A DNA stretch of 64,000 bases, taken from an uncultured Bifidobacteriaceae bacterium (lineage in GTDB: Bacteria > Verrucomicrobiota > Verrucomicrobiia > Limisphaerales > UBA11358). The notes beneath the pieces were generated by a model that worked only from the letters and a program-made list of their open reading frames with translations, was not told the DNA's origin and ran no database searches. The position numbers were made by a program, and so were the translations under genes. Location: NCBI GenBank assembly GCA_964536285.1, contig CAZHXG010000006.1:2303-66302 (forward strand). The letters run 5' to 3'. Shown one piece after another: positions 28,933 through 36,365 of this stretch (the first letter of the stretch is position 1; each line of letters opens with the position of its first letter).

Positions 28933-29691
28933 TTAAACTTGTTTGGTAATCCAATCGTAACCCTTTGCCTCGAGTTCGAGCGCAAGTTCCTTGCCGCCGG
29001 ACTTCACGATGCGACCGTCCGCGAGAACGTGGACGAAATCCGGCACGATGAAATTCAGCAGCCGCTGATAATGCGTGATGACGAGTTGCGCGCTGTCGGC
29101 ACGCTTCAATTTGTTGACGCCGCCCGCGACGATGCGCAGCGCGTCAATGTCGAGGCCGGAATCCGTTTCGTCGAGGATGGCGAGCTTCGGTTCGAGCACG
29201 GCCATCTGGAAAATTTCGTTGCGTTTTTTTTCGCCGCCGGAAAAACCTTCATTCACCGAGCGCTTGAGCAAATCCTCGTTGAGTTCGAGCAGTTTGATCT
29301 TGTCTTTGACGAGTTCCAGAAAATCAATCGCGTCGAGTTCCGGCTGGCCTTTCGATTTGCGGATTTCGTTCAGCGCGGCCTTCAGAAAATAAGTGCTGTT
29401 CACGCCGGGAATCTCGACCGGATATTGGAACGCGAGAAAAACGCCTTCGCGCGCGCGTTCCTCGGGATCGAGTTCGAGGAGGTCGTGGCCGAGGTAATTG
29501 ACCGAGCCGCCGGTCACGTCGTAACCGTCGCGTCCGGCCAGCACTGCGGCGAGCGTGCTTTTGCCGCTGCCGTTCGGGCCCATGACGGCGTGGACTTCGC
29601 CCGCACCAATGGTGAGGCTGACGCCTTTTAAAATTTCTTTGTCTTCCACACCCGCGTGCAGATTTTTGATTTCAAGTATTGGTTTGCTCAT
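28933..29691 (-). CDS. sufC: Fe-S assembly ATPase SufC
   Basis: GPNGSGKSTL, FLAFQYPVEIPGV, RSVNEGFSGGEKKRNE, LDETDSGLDIDAL, ITHYQRLL. Confidence 0.97.
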   Translation of the reverse strand: MSKPILEIKNLHAGVEDKEILKGVSLTIGAGEVHAVMGPNGSGKSTLAAVLAGRDGYDVTGGSVNYLGHDLLELDPEERAREGVFLAFQYPVEIPGVNSTYFLKAALNEIRKSKGQPELDAIDFLELVKDKIKLLELNEDLLKRSVNEGFSGGEKKRNEIFQMAVLEPKLAILDETDSGLDIDALRIVAGGVNKLKRADSAQLVITHYQRLLNFIVPDFVHVLADGRIVKSGGKELALELEAKGYDWITKQV

Positions 29692-29706: not shown

Positions 29707-29784
29707 AGCCACAGATTCTCACAGATGAAACACAGATTTCCGCAAAAAATTCTTATCTGTGAAAATCTGTGTTCATCTGTGGCT
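29707..29784. repeat. Palindromic element with three CACAGAT units per arm, between sufB and sufC
   Basis: AGCCACAGATtctCACAGATgaaaCACAGAT...ATCTGTGaaaATCTGTGttcATCTGTGGCT. Confidence 0.85.
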
Positions 29785-29788
29785 TTAA

Positions 29789-31237
29789 TCAGCCGACGCT
29801 TCCTTCCAGACTCACGCCCAGAAGTTTCTGCGCTTCGACGGCGAATTCCATGGGCAGTTCCTTGAACACTTCCTTGCAAAAGCCGTTCACGATCATGTTC
29901 ACGGCGTCCTGTGTCGCGAGGCCGCGCTGGTTGCAGTAAAAAATCTGGTCTTCGCCGATTTTGGAGGTCGAGGCTTCGTGCTCGACGCTCGCCGACGTGT
30001 TCTTCACCTCGATGTAGGGAAACGTGTGCGCGCCGCATTTGTTGCCGATGAGCATCGAGTCGCATTGCGAAAAATTGCGCGCATTCGTCGCGGTCTTCTG
30101 GATTTTGACGAGGCCGCGATAACTATTTTGGCCGTGCCCAGCGGAAATGCCTTTCGAGACGATCGTGCTGCGCGTGTTCTTGCCGATGTGCGTCATCTTC
30201 GTGCCGGTATCGGCTTGCTGATAATTGTTCGTCACGGCGACGGAATAAAATTCGCCGATGGAATTGTCGCCGAGCAAAACGCAGCTCGGATATTTCCAAG
30301 TGATGGCCGAGCCGGTCTCGACTTGCGTCCAGGAAATTTTCGAGTTCCTGCCTTTGCACAATCCGCGCTTGGTCACGAAATTGTAAATGCCGCCTTTGCC
30401 GTTCTCGTCGCCGGGATACCAGTTCTGCACGGTCGAATATTTTATCGAGGCATTGTCGAGCGCGATAAGTTCAACGACCGCCGCGTGCAATTGATTTTCG
30501 TCGCGCATCGGCGCGGTGCAACCTTCGAGATAACTCACCGAGGCACCGGCATCGGCCACGATGAGCGTGCGCTCGAACTGGCCGGTGTTGGCGGCGTTGA
30601 TGCGGAAGTAGGTCGAAAGTTCCATCGGACAGCGGACGCCTTTCGGGATGTAGCAGAACGAACCGTCGGTGAAGACGGCGGAATTCAGCGCGGCAAAAAA
30701 ATTGTCCGTGTAAGGCACGACCATGCCGAGATATTTTCGGACGAGTTCGGGATGTTCCTGCACCGCCTCGGTGAACGAGCAGAAGATGACGCCCTTCTCG
30801 GCGAGCTGTTTTTTGAAAGTCGTGCCGACAGACACGGAATCAAAAATCGCGTCCACCGCCACGCCAGCGAGTCGTTCGCGTTCGCGCAACGGAATGCCGA
30901 GCTTCTCGTAAGTCTCCAGCAACTTCGGATCAACTTCGTCGAGACTCTTCGGCGCGTTCTTTTTCGGCTTCGGCTGCGAAAAGTAAACGATGTCCTGATA
31001 ATTTATTTTCTCGTGATGCGCTTTTTGCCACGTCGGCTCGGTCATTGTCAGCCAATGACGATAGGCCTTGAGCCGCCAGTCGGTCAGCCATTCCGGTTCG
31101 TTCTTCTTGCGCGAGATCATGCGGATGGTGTCCTCGCTCAATCCCGGCGGCGCGGATTCGGTCTCCACGTCGGTGACGAAACCGTATTTGTATTCCGTCT
31201 TGACCAAATCTTCGATGGTGTCGGTTGCTGTCGGCAT
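29789..31237 (-). CDS. sufB: Fe-S assembly scaffold SufB
   Basis: [72 protein letters not shown]. Confidence 0.97.
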
Positions 31238-31252
31238 ATCAAATTTTGAAAC

Positions 31253-31684
31253 TTATTTTTTCTTCGCGCACTCGGCGCAAATGCCGTGAACGGCGATATC
31301 GTAATGATCTACTTTGAAACCCTTCGGGCGCGGCATGACAGTCGAATCGGTCGGCAGCGCAACGTCAAAAACCTCGCCACACGAATCGCAGTAATAATGG
31401 CAATGTTCCTCCATGTTCGGGCAAAAGCGCGTCGCGCCGCGTTCGAGTTGAACCTGACGAACCAAACCGCATTTTACGAGTGCGTCAAGCGTATTGTAAA
31501 CCGTCGCGTGGGAAATTTCCGGCATCGTCTTCTTTGTGCGAATGAAAACTTCCTCGGCGGTTGGATGATCGCGCTTGTGCAGGATCACGTCGTAGACATG
31601 CTGGCGCTGCGGCGTGAAACGAAAGCCGATTGTGCTCAAACGTTCGCTCAATTCGCCGTTCGATTTTTTTCCGGCCAAATTCAT
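31253..31684 (-). CDS. Fur-family (PerR/Irr-like) transcriptional repressor
   Basis: RFTPQR, DHPTAEE, ATVYNTL, HCHYYCDSC and CAEC Zn-site motifs. Confidence 0.92.
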   Translation of the reverse strand: MNLAGKKSNGELSERLSTIGFRFTPQRQHVYDVILHKRDHPTAEEVFIRTKKTMPEISHATVYNTLDALVKCGLVRQVQLERGATRFCPNMEEHCHYYCDSCGEVFDVALPTDSTVMPRPKGFKVDHYDIAVHGICAECAKKK

Positions 31685-31692
31685 TCGCGTCC

Positions 31693-31721
31693 AGAATAAG
31701 CGCGAACCCGAAGCGGGTCAA
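31693..31721 (-). promoter_or_regulatory. Sigma70 promoter of the fur-sufBC operon
   Basis: TTGACC-17 bp-TATTCT, then 8 nt, then ATG. Confidence 0.75.
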
Positions 31722-31722
31722 G

Positions 31723-31741
31723 ATTTAGAATAATTCTAAAT
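31723..31741. promoter_or_regulatory. Fur-family operator (ICE/Per-box-like)
   Basis: Perfect 9-1-9 palindrome ATTTAGAATAATTCTAAAT, 1 bp from the -35 box. Confidence 0.85.
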
Positions 31742-31758: not shown

Positions 31759-32370
31759 TCACTTCCGGAAAACGCTGACGCGGGCGGGCGGGAAATTCAT
31801 CCAGACGACTTTCGAGGCGAGGAGTTGAAAACTTGAAGCGCCGCGCGCCTGACCCTTGCCAAGGTGATAGCTGTATTGCACCCAATTTCCACGCGGTTGT
31901 AAAATCGCGCGGATTTTTTGTGCAAGCACTTCGGCTTCCTCCGGCGGAAAATTCAGGAGCGGCAGGCTGGAAATGACGGCGCCGACGCTTCCGATCGGTT
32001 CGCGACGTTCGCGAAGCAGATCGTCCAGATGCCATGCGTCGCCGGTGATGATGTGCGCGTTGGGAAAACGTTTGCGGAGCAGGCGCGCCATCGTCGGGTT
32101 GTTTTCGATGGCCACAAGCCGGTCTTCACGCAGGCCGCGCTCGATGAGCGCCTCCGTGACCGCGCCCGTGCCAGGACCGAGTTCGAGGACGAAACTTTCC
32201 GGATCGGACGGAAGCCAGTGCGCCATCGCCGCCGCGAGTTTCGGCGAACTCGGCGCGACCGAGCCCGTTCGTTGCGGATTGGCGAACCATTCCCGCAGAA
32301 ACAAGCCTGAATCACTCAACGCCGCGATAAGTTTTTTTGCCATGACAATGCGAATTGTCGTTCGCTCCAA
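31759..32370 (-). CDS. SAM-dependent lipid N-methyltransferase, PmtA/OlsG-like
   Basis: FLREWFANPQRTGSVAPSS...LA, VLELGPGTGAVT, SSLPLLNFP, QYSY, NFPPARV. True start may be 32343. Confidence 0.8.
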   Translation of the reverse strand: MERTTIRIVMAKKLIAALSDSGLFLREWFANPQRTGSVAPSSPKLAAAMAHWLPSDPESFVLELGPGTGAVTEALIERGLREDRLVAIENNPTMARLLRKRFPNAHIITGDAWHLDDLLRERREPIGSVGAVISSLPLLNFPPEEAEVLAQKIRAILQPRGNWVQYSYHLGKGQARGASSFQLLASKVVWMNFPPARVSVFRK

Positions 32371-33465: not shown

Positions 33466-34881
33466 ATGCGTTTCCCATTCGCGCTGACAAAAAAAATCGC
33501 GAGCCACATCATCAAGCACAAACTACGCAAGACGCCGAAATTCGCGATGGTCTTGCAGCTTGAGCCGCTGCACACCTGCAATCTCACCTGCACCGGTTGC
33601 GGACGCATCCGCGAATATTCCACGTCGCTCAAGGACATGGTTCCGCTCGAACAATGTTTGCAAGCTGCTGTCGAATGCGATGCGCCGATGGTTTCCATTT
33701 GCGGCGGCGAACCGCTAATTTATCCGAAGATTGAGGAATTGATCAACGGGCTGCTCGAGCAAGGCCGGGTCATTTACGTCTGCACGAACGGGATGTTCAT
33801 GCGCAAAAAAATGCGCGATTATCTCGCGGCAATTTATTCGCCGGCGATTGAGCCGAAGTTGAAAAAGCTGCTCGCCGGAAAATTGATTACGGAAAAGGAA
33901 GCCGAAGTCATCCGCAAATCCGACGACTCAGCAAAAAAGAAAGTCGTCATTCGTCCGACGCAATGGATGTATTGGAACGTCCACGTTGACGGTCTGGAAT
34001 TCACGCATGATTTGATCGTCGAGCGCGAAGGCGTGTTCAAGGAATGTGTTGAAGCCATCAAGATGGCGAAGATCATCGGCTATCAGGTCGCGACGAACAC
34101 GACGGTTTATCGCGAGACCGAAGTGCAGGAAATCGAGGACATGTTCAAGTATTTGAGCTCGCTCGAAGTGGACGGCCATACGATTTCGCCCGGCTATGAT
34201 TATGATGCCGCCAAGAAAGACATGGTCAAGCGTCTCGGCCGCGACCCGAAGGAATTTTTCCTGACGCGCGACATGACGCGCCAGAAATTTGCGAAAATCC
34301 AGGAATGGGGCAAGGCGTTCACGATTTTCGGCACGCCGGTCTATCAGGAATTTCTCGCCGGCAAACGCGAGCTGACCTGCACCGCGTGGGCGATTCCGAC
34401 GTTCAACGTCAAGGGCTGGAAAGCGCCGTGCTATTTGATGACCGACGGCCACTATTCCGGCTATCAGGAAATGCTCACGAAAGTGCAATGGGAAAAATAC
34501 GGCGTCGTCAACGGCGTCGCGCGCGACCCGCGCTGCGAACATTGCATGGTTCACTGCGGTTACGATCCGAGCGGCGCGCTCGGCACGAATTATCAATCCG
34601 GCGACAACTGGAAAAATTTTAAATATAACTTCGGCTCAAAACCGAAACCGTATCCGTCCTCGCCGGAACTGGCGAAGCGCGCATTCAACGGCGTGACCAT
34701 CGGCAAAGGCCATCTGGCCGAGGCGAAGGCCGCGATCAATTCGCCCGCCGCTGACGCGCGCGGCGCGTTCTCGAACGAAGTCCACCACGAGTCGCACGTC
34801 GGCAGTTCCTGCGGCACGACTGACACCAGCGAGCGCGATGAGTTGCTGGCGAAAATCAAAGACGCGAAAAAGTCTGAATAA
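33466..34881 (+). CDS. hpnH: Adenosyl-hopene transferase (radical SAM)
   Basis: LEPLHTCNLTCTGC, SICGGEPLIYP, CTAWAIPT, CYLMTDGHY, DPRCEHCMVHCGYD. Confidence 0.93.
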   Translation: MRFPFALTKKIASHIIKHKLRKTPKFAMVLQLEPLHTCNLTCTGCGRIREYSTSLKDMVPLEQCLQAAVECDAPMVSICGGEPLIYPKIEELINGLLEQGRVIYVCTNGMFMRKKMRDYLAAIYSPAIEPKLKKLLAGKLITEKEAEVIRKSDDSAKKKVVIRPTQWMYWNVHVDGLEFTHDLIVEREGVFKECVEAIKMAKIIGYQVATNTTVYRETEVQEIEDMFKYLSSLEVDGHTISPGYDYDAAKKDMVKRLGRDPKEFFLTRDMTRQKFAKIQEWGKAFTIFGTPVYQEFLAGKRELTCTAWAIPTFNVKGWKAPCYLMTDGHYSGYQEMLTKVQWEKYGVVNGVARDPRCEHCMVHCGYDPSGALGTNYQSGDNWKNFKYNFGSKPKPYPSSPELAKRAFNGVTIGKGHLAEAKAAINSPAADARGAFSNEVHHESHVGSSCGTTDTSERDELLAKIKDAKKSE

Positions 34882-34913
34882 TTTTTGGAGAGCGAAAATT
34901 TTTTGGAATCTAA

Positions 34914-36365
34914 ATGAGCAAAACACTTTATCTTTCACCACCAAGTTTTGACGGTTTTGACGGTGGCGCCGGCGCGCGTTATCAGGCGCGGCGCGAAGTC
35001 ACCAGCTATTGGTATCCGACGTGGCTCGCGCAACCCGCCGCGCTCACGCCGAATTCCAAACTGCTCGACTGTCCGCCGCACGACATTGATTTGAAAAAAT
35101 GTCTGGCGATTGCGAAGGATTACAACCACGTCATCATCAACACGTCCACGCCGTCGCTGAAAAACGATTGCAAAGTCGCCGAAGCCATCAAGGCGCAGCG
35201 GCCCGACACGAAAATTGGTTTCGTCGGCGCGCACACGATGGTTTTGCCAACCGAAACGTTGAAAGCATCACCCGCGATTGACTGGGTCGGGCGCAAGGAA
35301 TTTGATTTCACTTGCAAGGAAGTCGCCGAAGATCGCGACTTCGCGACCATCGCCGGTTTGTCCTACAAAAATCGTGACGGAAAAATCGTCCACAATCCGG
35401 AGCGCGAAATGATTCAGGACATGGACACGCTGCCGTGGGTGGCGGACGTCTACAAACGCGATTTGCAGATCGAAAAATATTTCATCGGTTACCTGCTGCA
35501 TCCGTATATTTCGATGTATACGGGCCGCGGCTGTCCGGCGCAATGCACGTTCTGCCTCTGGCCGCAGACGATTGGCGGACACAAATATCGCGTCCGTTCG
35601 CCGCAAAATGTCGCCGACGAAATGGCCTACATGAAGAAAATTTTTCCGCAGGTGCGCGAATTTTTCTTTGACGACGACACATTCACCGCGAATCTCCCGC
35701 GCGCCCGCGAAATTGCCAAGAAGCTTGCGCCGCTCGGCGTCCACTGGAGCTGCAACAGCCGCGCGAACCTTGACTACGACACGATAAAATCTTTCAAGGA
35801 CAACGGCCTGCGTTTGTTCCTGGTCGGCTACGAAAGTGGCAACGATGACATTCTGACGCGCATCAAAAAAGGCGTAACGATGGACGAAATGCGCCGCTTC
35901 ACGAAAGATTGCCATCGCGCGGGCGTCGTCATTCACGGCACGTTCATTTTAGGTTTGCCGGTGGAAACGAAACAGTCCATCGAGAACACGATCAATTTTG
36001 CGAAGGAACTTGACGTGTTCTCGCTGCAAGTTTCACTCGCCGCGCCGTATCCGGGCACGGAACTTTACGAAATGGCGAAACAAAACGGCTGGTTCGTGAA
36101 GAAGGACAAAACGGATTTGGTCGAGAGCGACGGTCTGCAACAGAGCACGCTTGAATATCCCGGTTTGGACAAGGATAAAATTTTCGAGGAAGTGGATCGT
36201 TTTTATCGCACGTATTATCTGCGCCCGAAGCCGATTTTGCGCATCATCAAAACGATGCTCGAGGACAAGGACATTTTGGTCCGCCGCTGCCGCGAAGGTT
36301 ACGAATTTTTCAACAGCCTGCGCCAGCGCAAGAGCGATCTTGCAGCCGCGAAAGCCGCCGCCTGA
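34914..36365 (+). CDS. hpnJ: Hopanoid-associated radical SAM protein
   Basis: PPSFDGFDGGAGARYQARRE..S.WYPTWLAQPAAL; GRGCPAQCTFCLWPQTIGGH. Confidence 0.93.
   Translation: MSKTLYLSPPSFDGFDGGAGARYQARREVTSYWYPTWLAQPAALTPNSKLLDCPPHDIDLKKCLAIAKDYNHVIINTSTPSLKNDCKVAEAIKAQRPDTKIGFVGAHTMVLPTETLKASPAIDWVGRKEFDFTCKEVAEDRDFATIAGLSYKNRDGKIVHNPEREMIQDMDTLPWVADVYKRDLQIEKYFIGYLLHPYISMYTGRGCPAQCTFCLWPQTIGGHKYRVRSPQNVADEMAYMKKIFPQVREFFFDDDTFTANLPRAREIAKKLAPLGVHWSCNSRANLDYDTIKSFKDNGLRLFLVGYESGNDDILTRIKKGVTMDEMRRFTKDCHRAGVVIHGTFILGLPVETKQSIENTINFAKELDVFSLQVSLAAPYPGTELYEMAKQNGWFVKKDKTDLVESDGLQQSTLEYPGLDKDKIFEEVDRFYRTYYLRPKPILRIIKTMLEDKDILVRRCREGYEFFNSLRQRKSDLAAAKAAA

Follow-up and report, generated by a model that had tools for sequence, protein, structure and literature searches.

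A PerR-like Fur-family regulator with a cysteine in its predicted metal-sensing site heads a suf operon in a soil verrucomicrobium

The regulator-sufB-sufC operon and its operator

The window analyzed here (the whole 64-kb stretch of DNA, from a soil verrucomicrobium) carries on its minus strand a regulator-sufB-sufC operon headed by a 143-residue Fur-family gene (Table 1). No terminator-like site is present in the gap between the regulator gene and sufB, and in the RNA runs, which contain relatives at 82-95% identity only, a metatranscriptome contig from one such relative crosses the regulator-sufB junction. Downstream of sufC lie a small conserved ORF (∼156-180 residues), which matches no family in Pfam or NCBIfam and is found again in the closest relatives, and then lpxK, likewise on the minus strand. 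Genes for SufD and SufS are absent from the whole 64-kb window, where a SufD query matches sufB alone.

Table 1. Positions of the genes, promoter elements, and sensing-site codons in the window, with sites on other contigs named by their L numbers
Feature	Position	Strand	Remarks
PmtA-like methyltransferase	31759-32370	-	Upstream of the 74-nt intergenic region that precedes the regulator gene
Two large radical-SAM-like ORFs	33466-36365	+	Upstream; unrelated to the regulator finding
Fur-family (PerR-like) regulator, 143 aa	31253-31684	-	Gene 1 of the operon; Pfam FUR match, PerR alignment
sufB	29789-31237	-	15 nt past the regulator stop; NCBIfam SufB 925 bits (cut-off 717)
sufC	28933-29691	-	TIGR01978 363 bits (cut-off 213)
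sufB-sufC spacer cassette	29707-29784		78 bp; 3 CACAGAT units opposing 3 ATCTGTG, spacing 10-11 bp
19-bp palindromic operator ATTTAGAATAATTCTAAAT	31723..31741		Read from the sequence; counterpart in 79 loci
-35 hexamer TTGACC	31716..31721	-	Promoter scan; one to two bases downstream of the operator
-10 hexamer TATTCT	31693..31698	-	Promoter scan; 17 nt after the -35; 8 nt before the ATG
Sensory loop C88-P-N-M-E-E-H94-C95-H96	31397..31423	-	C88, N90, H94, and H96 invariant in the clade
C88 codon TGC	31421-31423 (gca)	-	Codon inspected by eye
H94 codon CAT	31403-31405	-	Codon inspected by eye
C95 codon TGC	31400-31402	-	Codon inspected by eye
H96 codon CAT	31397-31399	-	Codon inspected by eye
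H40 codon	31565..31567	-	PerR H37, DNA-binding-domain ligand; invariant (81/81)
D107 codon	31364..31366	-	PerR D104; 80/81
Exact 17-mer box, other contigs	L124 6701-7779; L118 3680; L159 7125; L125 5680; L130 4292; L114 7013		
Non-clade PerR-like protein, Cys at Asp85 position	L084 1460-1897		Beside a ferritin and a 2Fe-2S ferredoxin gene

Cassettes analogous to the one in the sufB-sufC spacer, made of other 7-mers, occupy the regulator-sufB spacers of related loci (CACGAAT/ATTCGTG in L033, L035, L038, and L040 and CACAGAG/CTCTGTG in L025). The regulator-sufB spacers of L004, L005, L021, L023, L027, and L031 hold repeated copies, six at most, of GATTTAAC(A/G) or GGTTTAAC, which may serve as an additional regulatory or RNA element.

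The operator can be written in two ways, as ATTTAGAA-TAA-TTCTAAAT in the manner of the ICE consensus (TTTAGAA-N3-TTCTAAA; PMC1698941) or as the 7-1-7 repeat ATTTAGAAT-A-ATTCTAAAT. The ICE sequence has a single exact match in the 64-kb window, located at the operator, where by our own arithmetic ∼5e-4 exact matches per window are expected by chance. Counterparts occur in 79 related loci, for the most part 29-46 nt ahead of the regulator start codon (36-41 nt in 49 of the 79), with TTGAC(A) following straight after the box in most of them. The first-pass annotation had described this site as a perfect ICE-type operator abutting the -35 box, and both points are borne out; its further statement that the operator sits on sufBC is correct insofar as the box lies on the promoter of the operon, but the gene that it directly precedes is that of the regulator and not sufB.

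Across the loci, the middle N3 of the box reads T-w-A, which makes the site an 8-1-8 repeat with a 7-1-7 core, TTTAGAAT-w-ATTCTAAA; in six loci, the two half-sites have changed as a pair (TTTGGAA...TTCCAAA). TTGACA begins two bases past the box in most lineages, whereas in Chthoniobacterales-type loci the right arm of the box overlaps the -35 element (TTCTTGA), a shift of ∼6 bp relative to the other group. Such variable spacing between the box and the -35 element is in keeping with promoter occlusion rather than helix-face-dependent activation, and the arrangement points to the regulator being a repressor of the suf promoter. Since the regulator ORF has no possible start codon further upstream, the mRNA of the operon probably has little or no leader.

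Across 873 kb of related DNA, the only further sites with up to two mismatches are two directly before sufB; in L042 and L063, a box is placed there, between the regulator gene and sufB. A search near the suf promoters for the classical Fur box (TGATAAT-N-ATTATCA, up to three mismatches) gave none, its single match being the ICE-like box itself. In several Opitutae loci, TTATTCCAAT lies close to the -10 region as a second half-site, and in one Opitutae-type locus (L082, 5900-6000), the upstream palindrome is a different one (TTTAAT-GAT-ATTAAA).

Metal-site residues, conservation, and suf linkage of the regulator

The regulator matches the Pfam FUR family (PF01475) at 84.9 bits (cut-off 23.1; E = 6e-24), and its best relative of solved structure is B. 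subtilis PerR (2fe3; phmmer E = 2e-23). In the phmmer alignment, H40, H94, H96, and D107 coincide with PerR H37, H91, H93, and D104, C95 takes the place of Y92, and both CxxC pairs align with the structural Zn(Cys)4 site. Four of the five PerR site-2 ligands are thus retained, and the fifth, D85, is replaced by Cys88. The window protein has seven cysteines in all. An AlphaFold2 model built from 43 orthologues (pLDDT 80) superimposes on the closed PerR-Zn-Mn structure (3f8n) with a TM score of 0.76-0.80 and an rmsd of 2.8 Å and fits apo/oxidised PerR poorly (TM ∼0.53, rmsd >15 Å); its top Foldseek hits are exclusively Fur-family structures.

The protein falls short of the cut-offs of all NCBIfam equivalog models: it scores 89.7 and 74.2 bits with the PerR models (cut-offs 180 and 200), 81 with the Bacillus Fur model (220), 71.3 and 67.6 with the Irr/IrrA models (150 and 170), and 42.6 with the Zur model (167). 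As a control, the sequence of B. japonicum Irr scored 213 and 209 with the Irr models, which validates the yardstick. We therefore rejected assignment to PerR (because of the Cys at the D85 position and the scores below the PerR equivalog cut-offs) and to Irr (scores below the Irr/IrrA cut-offs); an identity as Zur was likewise rejected, as neither the score nor the DNA-binding-domain ligand nor the neighboring genes are of the Zur type.

Among 1.8 billion representatives, a full HMMER search returned homologues that share the motif R-x-C-[PAS]-N-[ML]-x-[ED]-H-x-H-F, the more distant neighbors of this clade reading mostly R-x-D-P-N...H-H-H. Scanning a single genome for each species gave 80 loci, most of them labelled Verrucomicrobiota (Limisphaerales/Pedosphaera, Verrucomicrobiales, Chthoniobacterales/Terrimicrobiaceae, and Opitutaceae); ∼10 MAG records carry the label of another phylum or none. 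In the sequences examined here, the clade is found almost only in Verrucomicrobiota. It should be noted that L001, L003, L005, L006, L015, and L034 are labelled Bifidobacteriaceae, Burkholderiales, Haliangiales, or Klebsiella, with a locus identity of 51-78%, and that these labels look wrong, or the bins contaminated. The clade is monophyletic in two FastTree trees computed from two alignments (support 0.84-0.86) and is derived from PerR/Irr-like Fur-family proteins, among which it is placed in both; its sister group, Irr or PerR, shifts between the alignments. Compared with the Asp-type neighbors, the D-to-C replacement is the sole clade-specific change in the metal site.

Conservation within the clade separates the sensing-site residues from the remaining cysteines. 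C88, H40, H94, H96, and N90 are found in all 81 orthologues and D107 in 80, while Pro89 is present in 57 of the 81 and is Ser or Ala in the other 24. Outside the CxxC pairs, C65 occurs in 73 orthologues, C72 in 60, and C95 in 28, and one orthologue has no cysteines beyond C88 and those of the Zn site. Both CxxC pairs are present in 77/81 and have been lost together in an Opitutae subgroup; its four suf-linked members have kept C88 and the histidines. All four Zn-site cysteines are gone from the Opitutae-type members L070, L076, L079, L080, and L082.

The suf genes lie immediately 3' of the regulator gene in 80/80 genome loci, in the order regulator-sufB-sufC or regulator-sufC-sufB(-sufD). Four further divergent members (38-46% identity, one of them without the Zn site) are suf linked too, giving linkage in 84/84 related loci, mostly from Verrucomicrobiota MAGs, which marks the protein as a dedicated suf regulator. 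Two proteins outside the clade show no linkage to suf: an Asp-type neighbor (P0178) and a protein that has acquired a Cys at the D85 position independently (P0261), whose gene adjoins those for a ferritin and a 2Fe-2S ferredoxin. The latter PerR-like protein, encoded on L084, carries its Cys in the sequence RYCTNLEPHHH, and its neighborhood is a second link of the Cys variant to iron handling and not to peroxide defence.

Much of the initial description of the protein has therefore held up, namely its PerR-like Fur-family character with Cys at the Asp85 position, the pairing of its other ligands with those of PerR, and its casting in the role of IscR or SufR, here as the dedicated suf regulator that the strict linkage indicates. 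Whether Cys88 goes together with suf linkage had been singled out beforehand as a check, and Cys is present at this position in 81/81 suf-linked orthologues. The idea of a Cys-enriched sensory site that includes Cys95 has not survived: given its occurrence in only 28/81 orthologues, Cys95 is a lineage feature and was rejected as part of the sensory site of the clade.

The sensing site, the class of the box, and the signal

A cysteine in the hinge is a feature that distinguishes Zur from Fur (PMC11672702). In a BLASTP alignment with S. coelicolor Zur (ScZur; verified to be identical to 3mwm/7vo0), C88, H94, and H96 of the regulator coincide with C79, H85, and H87, and the DNA-binding-domain ligand of Zur, ScZur D65, corresponds to Arg76. 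Because Arg76 replaces this Zur ligand while the PerR-type H40 is invariant and D107 nearly so, the sensing site is, judged from its residues, a hybrid 3His/Cys/Asp site that combines the geometry of PerR with the thiolate of Zur.

The same alignment, with a hinge Cys that is the mark of Zur as against Fur, would suit a zinc sensor or a Zn-thiolate redox switch, in which the hinge site holds Zn(II) as in Zur until peroxide, disulfide stress, or HOCl oxidises Cys88, which frees the zinc, opens the hinge, and derepresses suf. There are precedents in S. oligofermentans PerR, which is inactivated when its Zn-bound cysteines are oxidised, and in S. coelicolor CatR, a redox regulator of Fur-like type whose Cys4Zn site is structural (both PMC7380579), and most members of the clade have extra cysteines that could take part (C65, C72, or C95). 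We nevertheless consider a zinc-based switch quite improbable: Arg76 stands where Zur has D65, the score with the Zur model is 43 bits (cut-off 167), and the locus has neither zinc-uptake genes in its vicinity nor a Zur box as its operator. Moreover, C88 is the only cysteine shared by all members, one of which has just C88 and the Zn site, and Zn-dependent repression of suf would make little physiological sense.

The position of the gene at the head of a suf operon and its implied autoregulation, as in the case of iscR and sufR, together with the seven cysteines of the window protein, bring to mind a direct sensor of Fe-S clusters, with either the CxxC pairs or Cys88 and nearby His/Cys residues holding the cluster, as in IscR/SufR; binding of a [2Fe-2S] cluster has been reported for E. 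coli Fur (PMC11001641). The pattern of conservation makes this very improbable. Besides the Zn(Cys)4 site there is one invariant cysteine, C95 is found in about a third of the orthologues (28/81), and the four suf-linked Opitutae members without CxxC pairs retain C88 and the histidines, all of which argues against a cluster site common to the family; the invariant residues are, position for position, those of the mononuclear PerR site.

The class to which the operator belongs bears on whether the regulator is a heme sensor of the Irr type. The B. subtilis Per box is TTATAAT-N-ATTATAA, from which the clade box TTAGAAT-N-ATTCTAA differs at one symmetric position, and predicted PerR boxes of Desulfovibrio have a GAAT-N-xTTC core in common with the clade box (PMC545781). 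When metagenomes were scanned for the exact 17-mer TTTAGAAT-N-ATTCTAAA, most matches were AT-rich chance occurrences, the informative contigs being those of ∼50% G+C or more. On unrelated contigs of this kind, the 17-mer is found ahead of an Asp-type perR-rubrerythrin operon (as two tandem boxes) and ahead of ahpC, katG, Dps/ferritin-like, erythrin-VIT1 (MbfA-like), and nrdD genes. Together with the core shared with Desulfovibrio, its presence before perR-rubrerythrin and other peroxide-defence genes identifies the box as one of the PerR class; in terms of sequence, it is a 7-1-7 site of the PerR/Irr class and not one specific to Irr.

An Irr-like sensor would bind heme through the Cys88 thiolate (within Cys88-Pro89) and His94/His96, with the result that DNA binding is lowered or turnover of the protein is triggered, and suf expression would then follow heme and iron status, as in Rhizobiales. 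This is an unlikely reading, although it has several points in its favor. The box has the sequence of the ICE consensus, and in Rhizobiales suf is under the control of Irr (PMC1698941); the heme sites of Irr are a Cys-Pro motif and the His cluster H117-119 (PMC11442138), which aligns with H94/H96, and Cys-Pro is present in the window protein and in 57/81 orthologues. In one of the two trees, Irr and the clade also share a supported group (0.80), but this sister relationship is lost with the other alignment. As for the Cys-Pro motif, the proline is Ser or Ala in 24/81 orthologues, and D-P-N is common in the Asp-type neighbors, so that one D-to-C replacement in the ancestral motif accounts for Cys-Pro. 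The peroxide-defence genes that elsewhere use the same box, the scores of 68-71 bits with Irr models whose cut-offs are 150-170, and the retention by the window protein of the Zn(Cys)4 site that Irr lacks also argue against it.

That Cys88 and His94/His96 hold heme or an Fe-S cluster, or form a reversible thiol switch, is on the whole rather unlikely; if it were so, the clade would represent an independently evolved, phylum-wide class of Fur-fold sensors of Fe-S biogenesis, beside IscR, SufR, and RirA.

The reading that we prefer is that of a metal-dependent, autoregulated suf repressor with Fe(II) as its co-repressor, released by iron shortage or by oxidants, and we put its chances at about even. 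A dimer of the regulator would bind the 19-bp palindrome TTTAGAAT-N-ATTCTAAA at or over the -35 element of the only promoter of the operon and so block RNA polymerase. DNA binding would require metal at hinge site 2 (H40, C88, H94, H96, and D107), i.e., a PerR site in which a Zur-type cysteine takes the place of Asp85. We take the co-repressor to be Fe(II), which the thiolate should favor over Mn(II). Iron shortage would empty the site, and attack of peroxide or O2 on the Fe-thiolate/His site would inactivate the protein; either release event would raise the expression of suf and of the regulator itself.

The pairing of repressor, operator, and suf genes in this scheme is highly probable, and the proposed Fe(II)/oxidant signal is evenly balanced. 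An aspartate (not Glu) at the D104 position has been tied to peroxide sensitivity (PMC11672702), and the regulator has Asp at this position (D107), as have 80/81 orthologues. In S. mutans, which has SUF as its sole Fe-S system, sufCDSUB is repressed by PerR and induced by oxidants and by iron limitation (PMC11631912), and the oxidation of cysteines has been described as an input to PerR (PMC7380579). Conservation of the ligands does not by itself identify the signal, since Irr, with the same site-2 positions, senses heme, and Zn(II) could fill the His3/Cys/Asp site in vivo, as it does in Zur. It also counts against the Fe(II) model that a cell would have no obvious benefit from repressing its sole, housekeeping Fe-S system when iron is sufficient.

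Comparison with known systems

In the literature searched, we found no description of this clade and no account of how Fe-S cluster synthesis is controlled in Verrucomicrobia, and no curated model names the clade. The regulator-operator pair appears to provide this control in a phylum that is abundant in soil, water, and the gut, and the clade would constitute a new named subfamily for annotation pipelines. It is also a natural experiment in Fur-family metal sites, with a residue diagnostic of Zur fixed on a PerR scaffold that is devoted to one operon; knowing which metal or oxidant it responds to would reveal how the exchange of one ligand alters selectivity.

Among the systems with which it can be compared, PerR of B. 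subtilis (2fe3, 3f8n) is the closest in sequence and in its closed holo fold, and it shares H37/H91/H93/D104, the Zn(Cys)4 site, and an operator one symmetric position away, with suf repression known from the S. mutans protein. The clade differs in having Cys in place of Asp85 throughout, in a score of 90 bits for the window protein against a PerR cut-off of 180, in having suf and not katA, ahpC, or mrgA as its only linked target, in an apparently leaderless transcript, and in its near-restriction, as seen here, to Verrucomicrobiota.

With Irr of Bradyrhizobium and Rhizobium, the regulator has in common an operator identical to the ICE consensus, the control of suf, a similar recognition helix (SLATVYNTL), the HxH motif, and, in one subgroup of the clade, the lack of Zn(Cys)4. 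It falls below the Irr cut-offs, however, has no N-terminal heme-regulatory motif, carries Cys88 where Irr has Asp, and does not come from an alphaproteobacterium. The likeness to Zur (S. coelicolor 3mwm and M. tuberculosis 2o03) consists of the hinge Cys followed by H-x-H at a spacing to the first CxxC that is identical, but the DNA-binding-domain ligand is the PerR-type His40 and not the Asp of Zur, the operator and linked genes are unrelated to zinc, and the clade nests among PerR/Irr-like proteins.

As with IscR and SufR, the regulator is encoded at the start of an operon for Fe-S assembly, and an operator of its own on the operon promoter implies autoregulation, but its fold is that of Fur and not of the Rrf2 or SufR type, and the clade lacks the three or four conserved cysteines that ligate a cluster. 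Control of suf by Fur, PerR, and Irr is already known; what is new is a subclass in Verrucomicrobiota that is dedicated to suf and in which an Asp-to-Cys replacement has become fixed in the sensing site.
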